Assembly: GCA_037141995.1 (NCBI GenBank)
Contig: JBAXBM010000050.1
Span: 1-11,466, forward strand
DNA from: Candidatus Omnitrophota bacterium
GTDB taxonomy: Bacteria > Omnitrophota > Gorgyraeia > Zapsychrales > Fredricksoniimonadaceae
Reading direction: 5' to 3'
Length of the DNA stretch: 11,466 nucleotides
The position numbers and the translations under genes are program-made. Shown here one piece after another: positions 820-11,466 of this stretch. Under the pieces are notes generated by a model. It ran no database searches. It was not told the DNA's origin and saw only the letters and a program-made list of their open reading frames with translations. How positions within the stretch are numbered: the stretch's first letter is position 1; each line of letters starts with the position of its first letter.

Positions 820-878
820 TATAATATTTGACAATACCGTCGTATGTGTTAAATTTGCTAATTAGGATTAGCAAATTT
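820..878 (+). promoter_or_regulatory. Candidate sigma-70 promoter for the AAA+ ATPase gene, with an overlapping palindromic operator. Exact TATAAT at 820..825 and TTGACA at 828..833. The operator at 851..878 is a perfect inverted repeat AAATTTGCTAAT-TAGG-ATTAGCAAATTT.
   Basis: Hexamers and the 12-bp/4-bp/12-bp perfect palindrome were read directly from the sequence. A related mini-palindrome TAAAT-TAGG-ATTTA lies at 914..927, just before the start codon at 934. Confidence 0.45.
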
Positions 879-2990: not shown

Positions 2991-3003
2991 GGCGGTGGGG
3001 ATG

Positions 3004-3069
3004 AAATATTTTCATGGTTTTCTGCTTTTTTATGTGGCATACTTGTTTCTGGTGGGTTTTATCCAATAG
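3004..3069 (+). promoter_or_regulatory. Copy A of a ~66-bp conserved intergenic element, also found at 4752..4817. It ends 18 nt before the start codon of the SPFH gene. Contains TGGCATACTTGTTTC (sigma-54-like -24/-12 spacing; -12 element imperfect).
   Basis: About 85% nucleotide identity to copy B over 66 nt. The position relative to the downstream start codon is identical in both copies. Confidence 0.5.
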
Positions 3070-3086
3070 ACCAAAAGGACAGATAT

Positions 3087-4067
3087 ATGCAGAATGAACA
3101 GGGATTGATCTTTAAAGGGATATATGAGTTTGAAGATCCGCTTGGCGTTCTTGTTGCCGCTAAGGTTCCGTCGGTTGGTACCTTGGATCTTTATTCCGGG
3201 ACGGCTGTTTTGGTCAAGGCCAATCAGTGCGCGCTGTTTATTTATAACGGCAAGATCGCCGATATTTTGATGCAGGGCTTGCACGAGGTCAAGACCGAGA
3301 ATTTTCCGCTTTTAACGCGGCTGGCCAACTGGCAGTTTGGGTTTGAAAGTCCTCTCCGGTGTGAGGTATGGTTTTTTTCTGGCGCTGTTTACACCAACAG
3401 GCGCTGGGGAACGTCTCAGCCAGTGATCTGTGATTTTCCGGATCACGGGATAGTGCCGGTGAGGGCGTACGGGATCTTTAATGTGGTCATGCGTGATCCC
3501 AATAAATTTTTTATGACGTTGATCGGGACGCGCAATGCGTACGATATAACTGAACTTGAGGGTCTGGTTCAGGCTCAGATCACGGAAATTCTTCCTGCGG
3601 CCATGCATGTTGTCCCGTCACTTCAGGACTTAAACAAGTCACAGACGCTGGTGGCAAAAGAACTGCAGGGGTTGGTCAATAAAACGATCGAGCAATACGG
3701 CATTGAAATTGTGAGCCTGCAGGTGATCTCGATGATCCCGTCGAAAGAGATCATGGAGGCGCTCGATGCCAAGGCGTCCATGAACATCATCGGCAATAAA
3801 CAGGAATATCTGCTTTATAAGGCGGCCAACAGCTTGATCGGGAGTCATGAGGGTGGTCATGCGAAAGGTTCCAGTGATTCCATGCAGTTGATGATGGGGT
3901 TGATGCTCGGGAAAAGCCTCCTGGATGCCAAGGAAAAAGAGCACACCATGCTGCTGAAAACAGAAGAAGCGCCTCCGATGATTGAAACAAGGTCATGTTC
4001 AAAATGTAAAGCTGTTGTCAAAGCCAGCGACAAGTTTTGTGCGTCCTGCGGAACGGAGCTGAAATGA
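3087..4067 (+). CDS. SPFH (stomatin/prohibitin/flotillin/HflK-C)-domain protein of the COG4260 type with a C-terminal zinc ribbon (YdjI-like).
   Basis: RBS AAGGA 7 nt upstream. The N-terminal region matches the COG4260 signature (GLIFKG..., NQCALFIYNGKIADI, NWQFGFESPL, EVWFFSG..., RWGTSQPV, GIVPVRAYGIFNVVMRDPNKFF, LIGT). C-terminal CSKC-x14-CASC zinc ribbon. Confidence 0.8.
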   Translation: MQNEQGLIFKGIYEFEDPLGVLVAAKVPSVGTLDLYSGTAVLVKANQCALFIYNGKIADILMQGLHEVKTENFPLLTRLANWQFGFESPLRCEVWFFSGAVYTNRRWGTSQPVICDFPDHGIVPVRAYGIFNVVMRDPNKFFMTLIGTRNAYDITELEGLVQAQITEILPAAMHVVPSLQDLNKSQTLVAKELQGLVNKTIEQYGIEIVSLQVISMIPSKEIMEALDAKASMNIIGNKQEYLLYKAANSLIGSHEGGHAKGSSDSMQLMMGLMLGKSLLDAKEKEHTMLLKTEEAPPMIETRSCSKCKAVVKASDKFCASCGTELK

Positions 4068-4738
4068 ACTTTGATATCATATGCCCCAATTGTGGTGCGG
4101 CATCTTCCATTGTGGTGGGTGTTTGCCCGTATTGCAAGACGGTCTTGTCTATTAATTCTGAGAAAGGGGATCATTCTCTGTCGGCGGTGAAAGCAGCCCA
4201 TGAAGCCGGAAAAACGGACAGGTCTCTGTCACTGGTGACGGCACTTGAACAGGAAAAGCCGGAGCTGCTGGATAATATTGAATTTGTTTTGTTGTATACC
4301 AGAATTCTTTTTGAAGTGGATGGGCCTTCCAGCAAGATCAAGTCTTTGCTGACCAAAGCCCTGATCCTGGCGCCCGGTCATCCTGATGTGTTGGAATATC
4401 TGGAAGTGATCGAGGCCGAGTCCATGATGACCCGGGAGCCCAATGATGAAGGTGAACAGCGTCTCATGCGACTCATTCGCCGCTCGCCCAATAATGTTTA
4501 TGCGTTGTTTTTCCTCGGGAGTCATTTGTTTTGGGTTCAAGGAAACGGTGGTGCTGCCCTGAAGTATCTTGAGCCGTGCGTCAGGTTGCGCCCTAATTTT
4601 ATACGGGCCAAGGCCTGTTTGGCGATGATCTACAAGGAATTAAACAAGCCGGATATGGCTAAAAGATTTTTTGATGAGTGTGCCGCCAGCACATCGAGCA
4701 ATAGGACGAAGTCATTTTTCAAAAGGCTTACGGATTGA
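4064..4738 (+). CDS. Zinc-ribbon plus TPR-like helical-repeat protein, translationally coupled to the SPFH gene through an ATGA overlap.
   Basis: Start ATG at 4064 overlaps the upstream TGA stop (4065..4067); the ORF track shows a longer 4037 start that is less likely. N-terminus is CPNC-x13-CPYC. The remainder is alpha-helical repeat-like, with LLYTRILFEV, ALILAPGHPDVLEYLEVI, ALFFLGSHLFWVQG and ACLAMIYKELNKPDMAKRFF resembling TPR units. Confidence 0.65.
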   Translation: MNFDIICPNCGAASSIVVGVCPYCKTVLSINSEKGDHSLSAVKAAHEAGKTDRSLSLVTALEQEKPELLDNIEFVLLYTRILFEVDGPSSKIKSLLTKALILAPGHPDVLEYLEVIEAESMMTREPNDEGEQRLMRLIRRSPNNVYALFFLGSHLFWVQGNGGAALKYLEPCVRLRPNFIRAKACLAMIYKELNKPDMAKRFFDECAASTSSNRTKSFFKRLTD

Positions 4739-4751
4739 TGCTCTAGCGGCC

Positions 4752-4817
4752 AAAATATTTTTTGGTTTTTTGCCTTTCTATATGGCATACTTCTTTCGGG
4801 TGGATTTTATTCAATAG
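4752..4817 (+). promoter_or_regulatory. Copy B of the ~66-bp conserved intergenic element. It ends 18 nt before the start codon of the 703-aa secreted protein and contains TGGCATACTTCTTTC.
   Basis: Alignment to 3004..3069 shows one 1-nt indel plus scattered substitutions. Same spacing to the start codon. A Shine-Dalgarno-like AAGGGGG follows. Confidence 0.5.
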
Positions 4818-4834
4818 TCTTAAGGGGGTTAAAG

Positions 4835-6946
4835 ATGTTGGAAAAACTGTATTCATTTGCCGGATTCCGGAAATTGATTTGTTGGTTGATGGCTGTTGTT
4901 TTTTTGACGGGATCAGTGATGCCCTTATATGCGCAGGGTGTGGCCGGCCTTTCATCTTCCGGGATGATGAACGTAAGCCGGACATTCACGCCGCCGATTG
5001 TCAGGGGGATGACGATTGATCCCAAGGATCCGTTTGCTTTTAAGTTTCTGATGGACCGCGGGGATGACAAGGGGTTGTCCCTGGAGGCTCGGACGGCAGT
5101 TTATGAGAAGTTGATCAAATATTTCATGGCGTCATTGGCGGTGCCGGAAGAAGATGTCTGGGTCAACCTTTCTCCCTATGAAGGGGATCGTTTGATCGCA
5201 GATAATTTTGGCATGACCGTTATGGGGCGCGACCTTCTGGAAATGGATTATGCGTTAAAGCGTGTCACGGCATCGTTATTTCATCCTGATCAGGAGCCGG
5301 GGAAGGCGTTCTGGAAGAAGGTTTATCAGGCGGCCTATGAACGTTATGGGACAACGGATGTGCCGGTCGATACGTTCAACAAGGTCTGGATCGTTCCGAG
5401 TGAGGCAAAGGTTTATGAGGACGGCAATTCTGTTATTCTGGTGAAAAGCCATCTCAAGGTCATGCTGGAGCAGGATTATTTGGCGCAGAAAAAGAATGCC
5501 GCGGTACACCCCGATAACAAGAATGATAAAGATTCCCAGTTTTCCCGCGATATTGTGCGTGAAGTCATGATTCCTATTCTTGAAAAAGAAGTCAATGACG
5601 GCGAAAATTTTGCAGTGTTACGTCAGATCACCGCATCGCTGATCCTTGCCACCTGGTATAAGAAAGCCTGGAAAGATGTTTTGTTGAACCAGGGATATAC
5701 GGATCATTCCAAGGTCAAAGGCGTTGACCAGGATCCTGCTAATAACCAGATTATCTACAACCAATATGTGGAAGCATTCAAGCAGGGCGCTGTGAATCTG
5801 GTCCGTGAAGAATATGATACGTTATCGCAGGAAATGATGCCACGGAAATATTTCTCCGGCGGTTACGGCACAAAGATGACAACAGATGATGGGCAGACAA
5901 CGTCTTTACAGCAACGATTAGAAGAAGTATCTCAGTCGCCGATGTTGGATCCAAAGAAAACGGAGTTGGTGGCGGCGTCTTTGATGCCAACGGCAAGAAC
6001 AACAGTTGCCGGGTTATTCCGACCTGTTTCACGCTTGGCGCTTCTTATTGTGTTGTGGACAGGGGCTTTCTTTCAACCAACGACAGCGGCTTTAGCAGAA
6101 TATAGAAGTACACAAAGTTTTACATATACGAACGGTTCTAGAACTCAAAAAATGGAGTTGATTGTTACTGATCCTGGCGTTGTTGTGACAGATGTGTGGG
6201 ATACTCAATCAAAGATGCTACGTGATTTCACGGATACTGTAAATACAGTAATTATAATGTCTAGGAGTAATGAGTTAGGGGCCTTAGATACACTTGGGAA
6301 GCTTGAAGCAAGAGTCAAAGCAGGGAAGGCCTCAGAAGAGGCGATATTGAAGGGGTTGGTTCAAAAGCAATTTGTTGCTTTATTAATGAATGGGAAAAAG
6401 CCTGTTGATATATCTCCGTTTCTTCAAGCGTATACTGATTGTTTGCAAGAGATAGGGCGGGTACGAAAGACTATAGACAACAATAATAAGATACGGGCTT
6501 ATAATGAAGCTGTGGAGCAGAATAATGCTAAAGCACGAGAATTCAATAAAAATCAAGCGAAGTATTCCTCTGTTGTGAAGGGGTATGTTGAGATTTTTAA
6601 TAAGAAGCAACGTGACCCAGTAGAAATGAAAAAATTATCGGTAAGCATAGGTCAACTTCTTGCGCAACCAGATTTGCCTTCAAATTTCAGGGCAACTCTT
6701 CAGCAAATTAAAACATGGATAGATAAGGCGGAGAATGTAAAGAAACCAAAGCTTGTGACAGATAAGAATCTTGGTGGTATTGATTTGAATGCCAATTCTT
6801 TTAACCTTGAGGTTGAATCGCGTAAGGAAGCCAGGGGCTTGGTGTCTCCTGTTTTGGTTGATCTTGTTGCCCTTGAAGGCTTGAGCCCACGGATATTGTC
6901 CGTCACGTCCGCCAGTGAATATGTAAAGATGTTTTCAGGAAAGTAA
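4835..6946 (+). CDS. Large secreted or exported protein of unknown function (703 aa) with an N-terminal signal peptide. Possibly a fusion or two-domain protein with an internal hydrophobic signal-like segment near residues 384-420.
   Basis: Signal peptide MLEKLYSFAGFRKLICWLMAVVFLTGSVMPLYAQG. No recognisable catalytic motifs. GC falls from ~50% to ~40% after about nt 6040. Confidence 0.6.
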   Translation: MLEKLYSFAGFRKLICWLMAVVFLTGSVMPLYAQGVAGLSSSGMMNVSRTFTPPIVRGMTIDPKDPFAFKFLMDRGDDKGLSLEARTAVYEKLIKYFMASLAVPEEDVWVNLSPYEGDRLIADNFGMTVMGRDLLEMDYALKRVTASLFHPDQEPGKAFWKKVYQAAYERYGTTDVPVDTFNKVWIVPSEAKVYEDGNSVILVKSHLKVMLEQDYLAQKKNAAVHPDNKNDKDSQFSRDIVREVMIPILEKEVNDGENFAVLRQITASLILATWYKKAWKDVLLNQGYTDHSKVKGVDQDPANNQIIYNQYVEAFKQGAVNLVREEYDTLSQEMMPRKYFSGGYGTKMTTDDGQTTSLQQRLEEVSQSPMLDPKKTELVAASLMPTARTTVAGLFRPVSRLALLIVLWTGAFFQPTTAALAEYRSTQSFTYTNGSRTQKMELIVTDPGVVVTDVWDTQSKMLRDFTDTVNTVIIMSRSNELGALDTLGKLEARVKAGKASEEAILKGLVQKQFVALLMNGKKPVDISPFLQAYTDCLQEIGRVRKTIDNNNKIRAYNEAVEQNNAKAREFNKNQAKYSSVVKGYVEIFNKKQRDPVEMKKLSVSIGQLLAQPDLPSNFRATLQQIKTWIDKAENVKKPKLVTDKNLGGIDLNANSFNLEVESRKEARGLVSPVLVDLVALEGLSPRILSVTSASEYVKMFSGK

Positions 6947-7050
6947 TAGTGGCAGGGTATTGAATATTTCATCGACAAAATCACAATCAACCTTATAATG
7001 GCGCTGTTCAGGCGGGATTAATGGCTGGCGGCGCTATGAGAAAATCGTAG

Positions 7051-7183
7051 ATGTTTAGCGCCTTGTGTGCTCGCCGCGCCGAGCGCCGAGTGCTTTTTCG
7101 CCTGGAACGAGGGGGTTTATCCCCCGAGAGAAGCCGAAAGAGTGGCGCGGTATGGCAGGCGAGAAATCGAATGCGCTAAACAT
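7051..7183 (+). ncRNA. Copy 1 of a ~133-nt structured repeat element, immediately upstream of ygiQ and overlapping its start codon. Candidate cis-regulatory RNA or MITE-like structured repeat, with four helices supported by covariation against copy 2.
   Basis: P1 7051..7061 pairs with 7173..7183 (ATGTTTAGCGC / GCGCTAAACAT). P2 7070..7080 pairs with 7144..7148 plus 7158..7163. P3 7093..7100 CTTTTTCG pairs with 7135..7142 CGAAAGAG. P4 is the hairpin GGGGG-TTTAT-CCCCC at 7111..7125. Confidence 0.6.
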
Positions 7184-8960
7184 GCATAAAAAAACTTCGT
7201 TTCTTCCCATGTATCTTGATGAGATGGCGGCTCGGGGGTGGGGTGAGCTGGACGTTATTATCATCAGCGGCGATGCGTATGTGGATCATCCTTCCTACGG
7301 CACGGCATTGATCGGGCGTCTCCTGGAAAGCAAGGGTTATCGCGTGGGTATTATCGCCCAGCCGGACTGGCGGTCGCTGGATGATTTTACGCGCCTGGGG
7401 CGTCCGCGTTTGTGCGTTTGTGTGACGGCGGGCAATGTGGATTCCATGGTTGCCCATTACACGGCCAACAAGCGGCGGCGGCAGGGGGATGATTTTGCGC
7501 CGGGCGGCAAGGACGGCTTGAGGCCGGATCGTGCGGCGATTGTGTATGCTAATCGTGCTAAGGCGGCATTCAAGGGCCTGCCGGTGATCCTGGGCGGTGT
7601 TGAGGCCAGCATGCGGCGCTTGGCGCATTACGATTACTGGGATGATGCGGTGCGGCGTTCGGTATTGATCGATGCCAAGGCGGACATGATCATTTACGGC
7701 ATGGCAGAGCGGCCTGTTGTGGAAGTGATGGCGCGGCTGGCGCAGGGTGAGGCGATCGCAGCGATCCGTGATGTGCGCGGCACCGTGGTGCGTGTGAAGC
7801 CGGCGGAATTTCCTGCGGGGACGATAGAATTGCCGTCGTTTGAAGATATCAGCCGTGACCCTGAAATTTTTAACCAGGCATTTCGCCTGGCTTATGCGGA
7901 AATGTCGCCGGAAGACGGCAAGCCTTTGGCCCAGCGGCATGCGGATCAGTGTGTGCTGCAATTGCCCCCGGCATTGCCATTGACACCTCAAGAACTTGAC
8001 GCCGGTTATGATCTGGCGTATGCGCGCACATGGCATCCGTCGTATGATGCCTTGGGCGGCGTGAAGGGTTTAGAGACAGTGCGCTGGTCGATCACAGCGG
8101 TGCGCGGCTGTCCCGGGGAGTGTCATTTTTGCGGGATCACGTTCCATCAGGGGCGGATCGTGCAGAGCCGGAGCGTGGCGTCCATTGTGCGGGAAGCTGA
8201 AGGCCTCGCGCGCGACCCGGCGTTTCGGGGGACGATTCAGGATGTGGGCGGGCCGACAGCGAATTTATACGGTGCCAGTTGTGCCAATTGGAATAAAGGC
8301 CGGGTATGCCGCGGCAAGCAGTGCCTGATGCCATCGAAATGCCCGTCGCTGGATCTGGGGTGCCGGGAAGCGGTTTCCTTGTATGAAGCGATACGGCGTG
8401 TGCCGGGCATAAAACATATGTTCGTGCAGAGCGGTTTGAGGTATGATCTCTTGCTCGAACCGGCGGCGCTCGATTATTTCAAGGTGTTATGCCGTTATCA
8501 TGTCAGCGGGCAGATGAAGGTGGCTCCCGAGCATACATCCGACGAGGTTTTAGCGCTCATGAACAAGCCGCCCTATGCGCGGTATGAGGCTTTTGTCCGG
8601 CTTTTCAATGAGATCAATGCGGGGCTTGGCAAGAAGCAGTTTCTGGTGAATTATTTTGTCAGCGCGCATCCCGGGGCAGGGCTTAAGGAAGCGTTTGATT
8701 GTGCGTCAATGCTTTTATCCCGCGGGATGCATCCGGAACAGGTGCAAGATTTTCTGCCTTTACCCATGACGGTATCGGCGTGCATGTATCACACGGGGAA
8801 GCATCCTCTGACGGGCAAGAGTGTTTATGTGCCGCGGAAAGACAATGAACGCGCGATGCAGAGGGCCCTTGTGCAGTCGCAGAATCCTGGTAATGCGCCC
8901 TTGATTGACAAGGCGCTTAATATTTTAGGTAAACAGGGAGTTAAGAAAAAATTTAAATAA
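7182..8960 (+). CDS. ygiQ: YgiQ-family radical SAM protein (UPF0313).
   Basis: The N-terminus FLPMYLDEMAARGWGELDVIIISGDAYVDHPSYG matches the conserved YgiQ N-terminal domain. Radical SAM cluster motif CPGECHFC (C-x3-C-x2-C). Start chosen at the MHKK methionine (7182) rather than the 7065 start in the ORF track, which would read through the structured repeat. Confidence 0.85.
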   Translation: MHKKTSFLPMYLDEMAARGWGELDVIIISGDAYVDHPSYGTALIGRLLESKGYRVGIIAQPDWRSLDDFTRLGRPRLCVCVTAGNVDSMVAHYTANKRRRQGDDFAPGGKDGLRPDRAAIVYANRAKAAFKGLPVILGGVEASMRRLAHYDYWDDAVRRSVLIDAKADMIIYGMAERPVVEVMARLAQGEAIAAIRDVRGTVVRVKPAEFPAGTIELPSFEDISRDPEIFNQAFRLAYAEMSPEDGKPLAQRHADQCVLQLPPALPLTPQELDAGYDLAYARTWHPSYDALGGVKGLETVRWSITAVRGCPGECHFCGITFHQGRIVQSRSVASIVREAEGLARDPAFRGTIQDVGGPTANLYGASCANWNKGRVCRGKQCLMPSKCPSLDLGCREAVSLYEAIRRVPGIKHMFVQSGLRYDLLLEPAALDYFKVLCRYHVSGQMKVAPEHTSDEVLALMNKPPYARYEAFVRLFNEINAGLGKKQFLVNYFVSAHPGAGLKEAFDCASMLLSRGMHPEQVQDFLPLPMTVSACMYHTGKHPLTGKSVYVPRKDNERAMQRALVQSQNPGNAPLIDKALNILGKQGVKKKFK

Positions 8961-8962
8961 TG

Positions 8963-9098
8963 GTATTCAGCGCCCTGTGTTTTCGCCGCGCCAAGCGCCG
9001 AGTGCCTTTCCGCCTGGAACGAGGGGGCCGCAGCCCCCGAGAGAAGCCGGAAGGGTGGCGCGATAAGGCAGGCGAAAAGATCTGATGCGCTGAACGTG
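8963..9098 (+). ncRNA. Copy 2 of the ~133-nt structured repeat element. It lies between the ygiQ stop and the ybiT start, ending about 27 nt before the ybiT start codon.
   Basis: About 85% identity to copy 1. Every helix is preserved through compensatory changes: P1 TTCAGCGC/GCGCTGAA vs TTTAGCGC/GCGCTAAA; P2 TTCGCC/GGCGAA vs CTCGCC/GGCGAG; P3 CCTTTCCG/CGGAAGGG vs CTTTTTCG/CGAAAGAG. The P4 stem is kept while its loop differs. Confidence 0.6.
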
Positions 9099-9125
9099 TG
9101 CAATTAAACAAGAGAGGTAATCAGC

Positions 9126-10745
9126 ATGATCACGGTTAATAATGTTACGCTTCAATATGGCCAGCGGAAACTTTTTTCCGGTGTTAATATCAGTTTCTCC
9201 CAGGGTAATTGCTACGGCCTTATCGGCGCCAATGGATCCGGCAAATCAACGTTCCTGAAGATCTTGTCCGGCGAGATTGACTCAACCGAAGGTACAGTGG
9301 CCATTGATCCCGGCAAGCGCATGTCGGTGTTGCGCCAGGATCATTTTGCGTTTGATGAGCAGACGGTTTTGACAACGGTCATCATGGGGCACAAGCGGCT
9401 TTTTGATGTCATGCTGGAAAAAGACGCCATTTATGCCAAGGCAGATTTTACTGATGCCGACGGCATGCGTGTTTCCGAGCTGGAAGCCGAGTTTGCGGAA
9501 ATGGACGGGTGGAACGCGGAATCTGATGCCGGCAAACTCTTGGCGGAACTGGGGATCGCGACCTCAGCGCACACCCAGCAGATGAAACAGCTCGAGGGCG
9601 GCGACAAGGTGCGTGTGCTGTTGGCCCAGGCGCTTTTTGGCAATCCCGATATCCTTCTTCTCGACGAGCCGACGAACCATCTTGATGTCGAGACCTGCAT
9701 GTGGCTGGAGGAATTTCTTTCCCGTTTCGAGAATACGGCGATCGTTGTTTCCCATGACCGCCATTTTCTCGACAATGTGTGCACGCATATCGCCGACATT
9801 GATTTCGGGAAGGTTAAGATTTACTCCGGCAATTATACGTTCTGGTCGGAATCAAGCCGCCTCGCCGCAAAGCAGCGTAGTGAAGAGAATAAGAAGGTCG
9901 AGGACCGCCGCAAGGAATTGCAGGATTTCATCGCACGCTTCAGTTCCAATTTGTCAAAGTCGCGTCAGGCAACAAGCCGTAAAAAGATCCTCGAGAAACT
10001 TGTCATCGAGGACATTGAACCGTCTTCGCGTAAATATCCGTATGTGCATTTTGAGCAGGAACGCGAGGCCGGCAACGACCTCTTGGGGGTGGATGATCTG
10101 GCCAAATCTTTGGACGGGCAGGTCATGTTCAAGAAGTTATCATTTACGATTGAAAAGGGAGACAAGGTGGCTTTTGTGGGATCCAATGATCTGATCAAGA
10201 CGACACTTTTTCAGATTCTCATGGGCGAACTTCCGGCGGATAAAGGGACGTTCAAGTGGGGCTTCTCGACAAAGCGCGCCTATTTCCCGAAAGACAATGC
10301 CGAATATTTCAAGTCTGATCTCAGTGTCGTTGACTGGCTGAGGCAGTATTCCGAAGAGAAGGCCGAAGTTTTTATCCGCGGCTTTTTAGGCAAGATGCTT
10401 TTTACCGGTGAAGAATCCCAGAAACCGGCCAAGGTCCTTTCAGGCGGCGAGAAAGTCCGCTGTATGCTTTCACGCATGATGCTCATGAAGCCCAACGTTG
10501 TGATTCTCGACGAGCCGACCAGTCACCTGGATCTCGAGTCGATCACCGCACTCAATGAGGGGCTGAAGCGCTTTAAGGGCACGATCCTTTTCTCGTCGCA
10601 TGACCATGAGCTGGTGCAGACCGTCGCCAACCGCATCATCGAGATCACGCCGGCGGGCATGATCGACCGTACGGGTACAACGTTTGATGATTATCTGTCC
10701 GATGAACGCGTCAAAACCCTGCGGGCAGAGTTTGCCAGGGTTTAA
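9126..10745 (+). CDS. ybiT: ABC-F family ATPase (tandem ABC domains, no transmembrane domain), YbiT/EttA-like.
   Basis: Near collinear similarity to E. coli YbiT as I recall it: NVT.QYG...GLIGANGSGKSTF.KIL, RQDHFAF.E.TVL.TVIMGH, RVLLAQALF..PDILLLDEPTN.LD, SHDRHFL..VCTH.AD.D. Second half has KPAKVLSGGEK, ILDEPTSHLD and SHD. RBS AGAGAGG upstream. Confidence 0.9.
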   Translation: MITVNNVTLQYGQRKLFSGVNISFSQGNCYGLIGANGSGKSTFLKILSGEIDSTEGTVAIDPGKRMSVLRQDHFAFDEQTVLTTVIMGHKRLFDVMLEKDAIYAKADFTDADGMRVSELEAEFAEMDGWNAESDAGKLLAELGIATSAHTQQMKQLEGGDKVRVLLAQALFGNPDILLLDEPTNHLDVETCMWLEEFLSRFENTAIVVSHDRHFLDNVCTHIADIDFGKVKIYSGNYTFWSESSRLAAKQRSEENKKVEDRRKELQDFIARFSSNLSKSRQATSRKKILEKLVIEDIEPSSRKYPYVHFEQEREAGNDLLGVDDLAKSLDGQVMFKKLSFTIEKGDKVAFVGSNDLIKTTLFQILMGELPADKGTFKWGFSTKRAYFPKDNAEYFKSDLSVVDWLRQYSEEKAEVFIRGFLGKMLFTGEESQKPAKVLSGGEKVRCMLSRMMLMKPNVVILDEPTSHLDLESITALNEGLKRFKGTILFSSHDHELVQTVANRIIEITPAGMIDRTGTTFDDYLSDERVKTLRAEFARV

Positions 10746-10749
10746 CTAT

Positions 10750-11466
10750 CTATTTTAGTATTGTTATCAGTTCCTGCGGGGAAACGATGCGGACGAAATC
10801 GACGGCGCGGGGATGCTCGACCGGGCAGACACAATAACAGGGGACGTCAGGATATTCCGTGTGAAAGGCTTTAAGGCCTGTCAGGTCGCGCAGGCCAATA
10901 TGCGGGGTGGATTTGCATTCAATGGCATAGAGGATGGACGCTCCGCGGCTGATCAGCAGGTCAACTTCAGCTCCATTGTTTGTGCGCCAGAAGTTGAATT
11001 TCCAGTCGAGCTGGTGGTATTCATTGAGGTGTGTCAATTCCTGGATAACCCATTGTTCAAACAGTCGGCCTTGTTGGATCGGGTTGTTGTTGTCTCTAAG
11101 GGTTCCCAGGATCGAGCGGGTGACGCCATTATCAAAGAAGTAGAATTTCGGGCTATGGCTCATCCTTTGACGCAGGCTTTTCAAATAAGGGAAAATAAAA
11201 AAGCCGATGAGGGTATCTTCAAGGATGGCGTAATATTCCCGGACCGTTGATAATGAAACCTGGCATTCCCGGGAGACGGAAGAAAAATTGATCTGTTGGG
11301 CAAATTGAGCCGCCGCAATATCAAGAAAATTCTGAAACCCGTTAAGGTTTCGCACCAAAGCTTCGGCTTTGATTTCTTCGCTGAGGTAGGCAACGGTGTA
11401 GGCGCGCAGGAGATCTTGTGCCTGGTCCATTTTATTTTCCAGTAGCAGGCTGTAAATTCTTGGCAT
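10750..11466 (-). CDS. C-terminal DUF4143 portion of a second COG1373-type AAA+ ATPase. It is 5'-truncated at the window edge; the N-terminal ATPase domain lies beyond position 11466.
   Basis: DUF4143-like motifs: NFSSVSRECQVSLSTVREYYAILEDTLIGFFIFPY, KFYFFDNGV, LFEQWVIQEL, EVDLLI...AIECKS. These parallel the C-terminal half of the 934..2130 protein. The frame is open to the window end. Confidence 0.75.
   Translation of the reverse strand: MPRIYSLLLENKMDQAQDLLRAYTVAYLSEEIKAEALVRNLNGFQNFLDIAAAQFAQQINFSSVSRECQVSLSTVREYYAILEDTLIGFFIFPYLKSLRQRMSHSPKFYFFDNGVTRSILGTLRDNNNPIQQGRLFEQWVIQELTHLNEYHQLDWKFNFWRTNNGAEVDLLISRGASILYAIECKSTPHIGLRDLTGLKAFHTEYPDVPCYCVCPVEHPRAVDFVRIVSPQELITILK

Follow-up and report, generated by a model that had tools for sequence, protein, structure and literature searches.

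The stretch analysed here, hereafter the window, is an entire contig of 11,466 bp from a metagenome-assembled genome (MAG) of Candidatus Omnitrophota. The bacteria of this uncultured and widespread phylum are very small and may depend on hosts, and, to our knowledge, none of their promoters has been experimentally characterised. Among its genes are one for an SPFH protein carrying a zinc ribbon, one for a zinc-ribbon protein with TPR repeats, and one for a protein of 703 amino acids (aa) that belongs to an Omnitrophota-specific family (Table 1). The true start of the zinc-ribbon-TPR gene is the ATG at 4064; this ATG and the stop codon of the SPFH gene overlap in the sequence ATGA, thus indicating that the SPFH and TPR genes are translationally coupled. 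A block of 66 nt lies upstream of this SPFH-TPR operon and recurs upstream of the 703-aa gene. From sequence comparison, we consider it moderately probable that the block constitutes an entire promoter cassette of the sigma-70 family, belonging to the extended -10 class. Most likely, it is the cassette of the 703-aa family itself, copied before the SPFH-TPR operon in this lineage, and both units probably receive the same transcriptional input.

The repeat is found where the initial annotation had placed it, and its two copies are in register at an offset of 1748 nt. They had been called about 85% identical; this figure is right for the 3' 55 nt, where 47/55 positions match (85.5%; 3015-3069 versus 4763-4817), and slightly high for the full block, where identity is 53/66 (80%; 3004-3069 versus 4752-4817). 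A 21-nt core, TGGCATACTTNTTTCNGGTGG, is shared by the copies without a mismatch and had no match in 200 dinucleotide-preserving shuffles. The bounds of the repeat are sharp: in the rest of the spacers, identity is at background (5/13 positions to the left, 7/17 to the right), and the adjacent coding sequences match at 11/50 and 16/50 positions. Similarity beyond the block was also looked for between the flanking genes and the flanking proteins, and none was found. The two intergenic spacers are both exactly 96 nt long (2991-3086 and 4739-4834), and both copies end 18 nt 5' of the start codons, ATG 3087 and ATG 4835, each being followed, as annotated, by a Shine-Dalgarno sequence that is not part of the conserved block. 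Neither downstream gene has coding sequence in the block, there being no in-frame start codon upstream of 3087 or 4835, and the window holds these two copies of the element only. Both copies are present in an independent assembly from ENA (L001), a low-coverage assembly of the same population, and copy 1 is present in an independent Logan assembly (L002), showing that the block is not an assembly artefact.

Table 1. Genes and upstream elements of the window, with related sites upstream of family genes in other Omnitrophota genomes
Feature	Position	Strand	Remarks
Gene of unknown function	8-721
AAA_14/DUF4143 ATPase gene	934-2130	+
C92 permuted papain-like amidase gene	2172-2990
AT-rich palindrome, copy 1	3001-3015	+	ATGAAATATTTTCAT, then T-rich run; -7.8 kcal/mol with flanks
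Block, copy 1	3004-3069	+	Upstream of SPFH-zinc-ribbon gene; covers about -47 to +19, counted from the predicted start near 3051
-35-like hexamer TGGTTT, copy 1	3015-3020	+	17 bp 5' of the -10 hexamer
Extended -10 TG-G-CATACT, copy 1	3035-3043	+
GGTGG, copy 1	3051-3055	+	Region of the predicted transcription start; 7 nt 3' of the -10 hexamer
Shine-Dalgarno AAGGA, SPFH gene	3075-3079	+
SPFH (Band_7_1) and C-terminal zinc-ribbon protein gene	3087-4067	+	326 aa
Zinc-ribbon and TPR protein gene	4064-4738	+
AT-rich palindrome, copy 2	4750-4765	+	CCAAAATATTTTTTGG, then TTTTTT; -7.4 kcal/mol
Block, copy 2	4752-4817	+	Upstream of 703-aa family gene
-35-like hexamer TGGTTT, copy 2	4763-4768	+
Extended -10 TG-G-CATACT, copy 2	4783-4791	+
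GGTGG, copy 2	4799-4803	+
Shine-Dalgarno AAGGGGG, 703-aa gene	4822-4828	+
703-aa protein gene	4835-6946	+	N-terminal signal/transmembrane segment; no Pfam domain
YgiQ radical SAM protein gene	~7206-8960
ABC-F ATPase gene	9126-10745
DUF4143 gene fragment	10750-11466	-
L020a family-upstream site			TTTTATAGGGTATATTTGTCAAAGGTGG
L020b family-upstream site			CTTTATAGGGTATATTTATATAGGTGG
L022 family-upstream site			GTCTATACTTATTACGGTGG
L018 family-upstream site			ATATATAGTACATACTTACTTCTGGGG
L017 family-upstream site			GTTTATAGAGAATACTT
L024 family-upstream site			TTGAAA-N17-TACACTT

Read from 5' to 3', the block would present the parts of a promoter cassette in order, namely, an AT-rich palindrome with a T-run, a weak -35 element TGGTTT, a 17-bp spacer, an extended -10 element TG-n-CATACT and a G-rich GGTGG; the layout in the window is TGGTTT-N17-TGgCATACT, with GGTGG at the predicted start. 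Transcription would begin near 3051 and 4799 and give leaders of ~36 nt, each ending in the gene's own Shine-Dalgarno sequence. The hexamer CATACT has the A at position 2 and the T at position 6 that characterise a -10 element in both copies, and a TG at -15/-14 is present in both, without being general among the promoters of family genes in other genomes. Within 3004-3069 the copies differ at 13 positions, none of which is among the 19 assigned to the -35, TG, -10 and GGTGG elements (hypergeometric P = 0.007). The stem ends of the palindrome differ between the copies with pairing kept, and the palindrome and T-run might act as a weak terminator of the upstream gene, as an UP-like tract, or as both. 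Near-consensus TTGACA/TATAAT sites occur before other genes of the window (828-855 and 6972-6999) and in another Omnitrophota locus (L018), indicating that the RNA polymerase of this phylum uses -35/-10 promoters. The block resembles extended -10 sigma-70 promoters, such as those of the E. coli galP1 type and many in Gram-positive bacteria, in the TG at -15/-14, A-11 and T-7, the weak -35 at 17 bp, the AT-rich upstream tract and a purine-rich start ~7 nt downstream. It differs from them in its hexamer, CATACT, which agrees with the consensus at 4/6 positions, and in that the spacer and the start region are also conserved among family promoters.

The 703-aa family is confined to Omnitrophota, with 2,785 matches at E<1e-5 and several members per genome, and sites related to the block lie 40-71 nt before the start codons of family genes elsewhere. 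This variable distance to the start codon fits a promoter and not a translation signal. The -10 hexamers of these foreign sites are TATATT (L020, twice), TATACT (L022), CATACT (L018), AATACT (L017) and TACACT (L024), and TTGTTT, TTGTTT, TTGAAA, GTGTTT and TCGTTT stand at the -35 position, always exactly 17 bp from the -10. When the sequences are stacked on these sites, they read TnGTTT-17 bp-yATAyT, with a conserved T after the hexamer and, mostly, GG(T)GG 6-7 nt further on; GGTGG itself is common to L020a, L020b and L022. A weight matrix made from five foreign sites alone ranked the two window copies, at 4776 and 3028, first and second of ~22,900 positions, with scores of 13.6 and 13.5 against 9.3 for the next site. 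In the reverse direction, a 55-nt matrix made from the two window copies was run over 236,886 positions in nine foreign loci, of which the family-upstream windows make up ~0.5%. Its first and second hits, L020 6180 and L018 9937, both lie in such windows, for which the chance is of the order of 1e-5, and a third family-upstream site (L024, minus strand) ranked fifth. These scans relate the element to the upstream region typical of the 703-aa family, and they make the copy before the SPFH-TPR operon the odd one out.

In L020, two adjacent family paralogs carry near-identical upstream motifs, CTTTwTATAGGGTATATTT...GGTGG, at 6193-6220 and 9920-9946. Neighbouring units thus share a promoter motif there in the same pattern as in the window, which in L020 is explained by tandem gene duplication.

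Several observations weigh against a sigma-70-type cassette. The -35 element is poor, since TGGTTT at its 17-bp spacing matches TTGACA at 2/6 positions only, the -10 element has C at its first and fifth positions, and a simple sigma-70 consensus scan of the window passed over the site. Conservation also covers the spacer (TTTATAGnG) and the start region, which a plain housekeeping promoter would not need; this conservation beyond the hexamers suggests that an extra factor or a dedicated sigma may be involved. The foreign comparison comprises eight family promoters from only six genomes, and the five sites of the foreign matrix were picked by eye for their resemblance, leaving the reverse scan as the only unbiased one.

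The added conservation bears on a different reading, in which the block would be the promoter of a dedicated alternative sigma-70-family factor, or a promoter with an operator, and the regulon would consist of the paralog family plus, here, the SPFH-TPR operon. We consider this possible, though unlikely; the initial annotation had itself named another alternative sigma factor as a fallback. Several features recur in L020a, L020b and L022, and partly in L018 and L017, namely, GTTTTTTG, which is T-rich and sits in the -35 region, the spacer motif TTTATAGnG, the T that follows the -10 hexamer, and GGTGG at the start, and the canonical TTGACA/TATAAT sites of other genes in the same loci look different. 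A shift of 3 nt moreover gives GTTTnn-N12-GGGTAT/TGGCAT, which resembles the consensus of general stress promoters of the Bacillus SigB type, GTTTAA-N12-15-GGGTAT; the shifted sequences are GTTTTy-N12-TGGCAT in the window, GTTTTT-N12-GGGTAT in L020a and GTTTAA-N12-GTACAT in L018. However, the best-conserved columns, ATAyTT, are the -10 element of the ordinary sigma-70 reading and lie downstream of the SigB-type -10, which leaves them unexplained; no SigB or Rsb genes were seen, and the phylum is unrelated. Furthermore, the L024+ site is simply TTGAAA-N17-TACACT and lacks GGTGG, no gene for a candidate factor is a constant neighbour, and duplicated paralogs would share their flanks by descent alone. 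The conservation of spacer and start leaves room both for a dedicated sigma or bound regulator and for common descent of the paralog promoters, between which these data do not discriminate. We are equally doubtful of the wider proposal that TnGTTT(TTTG)-N-TTTATAGnG-yATAyTT-N5-6-GGTGG marks a phylum-wide dedicated programme for the exported-protein family, controlled by an alternative sigma or by a specific regulator, into which the SPFH-TPR operon, as one for membrane-scaffold proteins, would have been recruited in this lineage.

The initial annotation had instead tentatively read the block as a sigma-54 (RpoN) promoter of the -24/-12 type, TGGCAT-N5-TTTC, activated by an enhancer-binding protein and responding to envelope stress, which appears very improbable. 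TGGCA and the spacing from GG to position 14 do match the consensus, and both putative boxes are identical between the copies, with TGGCAT, including the GG of the -24 element, at 3035-3040 and 4783-4788 and TTTC at 3046-3049 and 4794-4797. However, the GC expected in the -12 element (TTGC, 10 nt after GG) reads TC, its G being a T in both copies, and GG-N10-GC is reportedly, in the 1999 compilation by Barrios et al., the defining and nearly invariant feature of sigma-54 promoters. None of the homologous family promoters (GGGTATATTTGTCAA, GGGTATATTTATATA, GTCTATACTTATTAC, GTACATACTTACTTC and GAGAATACTTATACA) has GG-N10-GC, and it is absent from the aligned position in all of L020a, L020b, L022, L018, L017, L024 and L005; the homologous upstream regions of the paralogs all keep a -10-like hexamer where the window has CATACT. 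Sites of the form TGGCAY-N5-TTKC, with one mismatch allowed, are not enriched in the window (6 found, 4.4 expected from shuffles), and 130 kb of Omnitrophota DNA contain no canonical TGGCAY-N5-TTGCW. No upstream activator site is evident, and no Sigma54_activat gene is present in the retrieved Omnitrophota gene tables, which are a small sample. A literature search on sigma-54 or sigma factors in Omnitrophota gave nothing usable, its one match concerning Elusimicrobiota. The block is thus like sigma-54 promoters, for example that of E. coli pspA, in TGGCA at -24 and in the correct spacing to a T-rich -12 region, but differs from them in that both copies lack the -12 GC and the homologous promoters of other genomes have retained neither GG nor GC, and no enhancer-binding protein is evident. 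The analogy with the psp envelope-stress system had no basis other than the sigma-54 call and links between SPFH proteins and PspA, and no result of the present analysis speaks to it; we have removed the tempting sigma-54/psp annotation as unsupported.

Sigma-70-type recognition remains our preferred reading, and we infer that the block acts as a promoter at both places, that copying went from the family gene to the SPFH-TPR operon, and that the two units would be co-regulated. The promoter type would belong to the Omnitrophota-specific family of the 703-aa gene, and a copy would have reached the SPFH-TPR operon by duplication or recombination. In the simplest history, the SPFH-TPR pair came to lie beside a member of the family, whose promoter would have been duplicated in the course of this event; alternatively, a family paralog may have been replaced. 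Three other genomes (L003, L004 and L005) have SPFH orthologs of 67-73% identity and keep the SPFH-TPR pair. They have no homolog of the 703-aa protein, the element is absent, and no upstream region scores in the matrix scans; the L005 ortholog has TATACTT at the corresponding upstream place, without GG. The SPFH-zinc-ribbon and zinc-ribbon-TPR genes are thus a conserved, translationally coupled two-gene module. Its neighbours are unrelated between the genomes, L005 having an integrase of phage type and L004 the toxin-antitoxin pair HepT/MNT, which suggests that the module is mobile. The dedicated, conserved regulon of SPFH, TPR and 703-aa genes that had been proposed is therefore not supported, since the orthologs in these three genomes differ in their neighbours and are without the element. 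What stands of the proposed co-regulation is more local: a shared upstream region lies before two consecutive units, both copies are likely promoters, and a common input is plausible, but a conserved envelope-stress regulon is not borne out.

The same portability of the pair, with its different neighbours in L003, L004 and L005, would fit a recombination scar, in which the copies are direct repeats left by insertion of the 1.75-kb SPFH-TPR segment into, or next to, the upstream region of the 703-aa gene and at least one of them need not function. The repeats bracket exactly the SPFH-TPR pair, and the spacers are of equal length. On the other hand, the promoter positions are free of differences between the copies, the bounds of the repeat lie inside the spacers and not at gene boundaries, and the window has no recombinase gene nearby. 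We regard it as quite improbable that the copies are mainly a scar; such an origin is also compatible with two active promoters, so that it does not truly exclude a promoter cassette.

A comparable arrangement is the upstream homology box of the Borrelia erp/ospE/ospF genes, a shared upstream homology of a paralogous surface-protein family. Like it, the block would be a promoter-containing 5' flank carried by an expanded family of exported proteins, with common expression control. The block differs in that one copy precedes an operon outside the family, in its partial conservation across genomes and in having no known regulator. The analysis offers a concrete promoter architecture, predicted from comparison of upstream regions, for the largest lineage-specific gene family of Omnitrophota, and the copy before an unrelated membrane-protein operon would be a small example of regulatory rewiring by promoter duplication. 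A promoter is by itself an ordinary kind of feature, and its value would rise if the motif were shown to define a regulon.

We also considered that the block might be a dispersed small repeat of the REP or MITE kind, or encode a small hydrophobic peptide or leader; either is very unlikely. The genome does carry repeated intergenic elements, a second, unrelated intergenic repeat pair being present in the same 11-kb contig. However, the block has neither terminal inverted repeats nor target duplications, and elsewhere the exact core gives chance coding matches only. Matches to TGGCATACTTNTTTCNGGTGG numbered 5 in genome contigs and 6 in metagenome contigs, all coding and without flanking similarity to the element, in a scan of 185,579 species genomes and the JGI metagenomes (241 million records) that used an exact pattern, too strict in hindsight, and did not include the source MAG. 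A looser motif gave one chance match in viral contigs, in an AT-rich phage spacer. As to a peptide, copy 1 contains a Shine-Dalgarno sequence, an ATG, 22 codons and a TAG (3001-3069, MKYFHGFLLFYVAYLFLVGFIQ), but the corresponding position of copy 2 offers neither a start codon nor a Shine-Dalgarno sequence, and of the codon differences 8 are non-synonymous, L>P, L>R and G>D among them, and 3 are synonymous. The small open reading frame (ORF) was therefore rejected.

Two further identities were tried and discarded. A structured cis-regulatory RNA, whether riboswitch or leader, found no match in an Rfam scan of the whole window at E<=1 (0 matches), and the folds of the spacer RNAs, computed for both strands and for the alignment, were not significantly more stable than shuffles (z -1.35 and -1.42); the consensus fold of the two spacers has 12 pairs only, one of them compensatory. 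The Bacteroidetes-type promoter that the initial annotation had offered as an alternative fared no better: the TAnnTTTG of the Bacteroidota-type -33/-7 promoter is matched only in L020a, and the spacing of the TTTG is wrong.

The second repeat pair of the window is also intergenic and in register. It is GC-rich, ~140 nt long and ~88% identical, and its copies (~7051-7190 and ~8963-9105, plus strand) precede the gene for the YgiQ radical SAM protein and the ABC-F gene. The two copies fold to the same long hairpin, at -66 and -71 kcal/mol, and of its 42 predicted pairs, 6 have compensatory double changes and none is broken. The plus strand folds better than the minus strand, with several G-U pairs. 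The repeat is matched by nothing in Rfam and does not recur in the other retrieved loci. It looks like a selected structure, either a structured RNA of a new kind or a hairpin element of the REP/MITE type, and may be more interesting than the promoter block. The mechanically listed GTG start of YgiQ at 7065 would run through this repeat. The Radical_SAM_N match starts at residue 46 of the GTG-7065 ORF and TIGR03904 aligns from the ATG at 7206, and the real start is probably 7182 or 7206.

The architecture of the 703-aa family, which is an unusual one, was drawn from proteins P0121-P0240; a further paralog in the same MAG is P0176 (locus tag WCI27_06755), and P0122 is the nearest relative within the family. 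Members have a signal or transmembrane segment, a conserved N-terminal domain of ~345 aa with the invariants WVNLSP, MGRxLL, FNKVWI and PRKYFSGG, a middle part of high variability, and, at the C-terminus, a conserved motif of ~50 aa, GGIDLNxxNLxLQIKRDGxGVPLP...IDGLxPxILxIxP. Depending on the member, the variable middle holds WD40, NUDIX, glycosyltransferase, methyltransferase or HATPase domains. The N-terminal domain has no sequence match in Pfam, NCBIfam or the PDB, and its AlphaFold model (pLDDT 69.6) has no Foldseek match in the PDB at E<0.1; a protein search of viral contigs gave no relatives. In L001, the 703-aa gene carries a nonsense change at codon 141, L to stop, at ~3127 (window ~5255), which may represent a truncated allele in some cells or a sequencing error.

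With respect to anti-phage defence, PADLOC gave no match for the SPFH, TPR or 703-aa protein. Two AAA_14/DUF4143 ATPase genes on opposite strands flank the region, and the complete one (934-2130) matches PDC-S01, a candidate defence family in PADLOC, with E = 4e-151.

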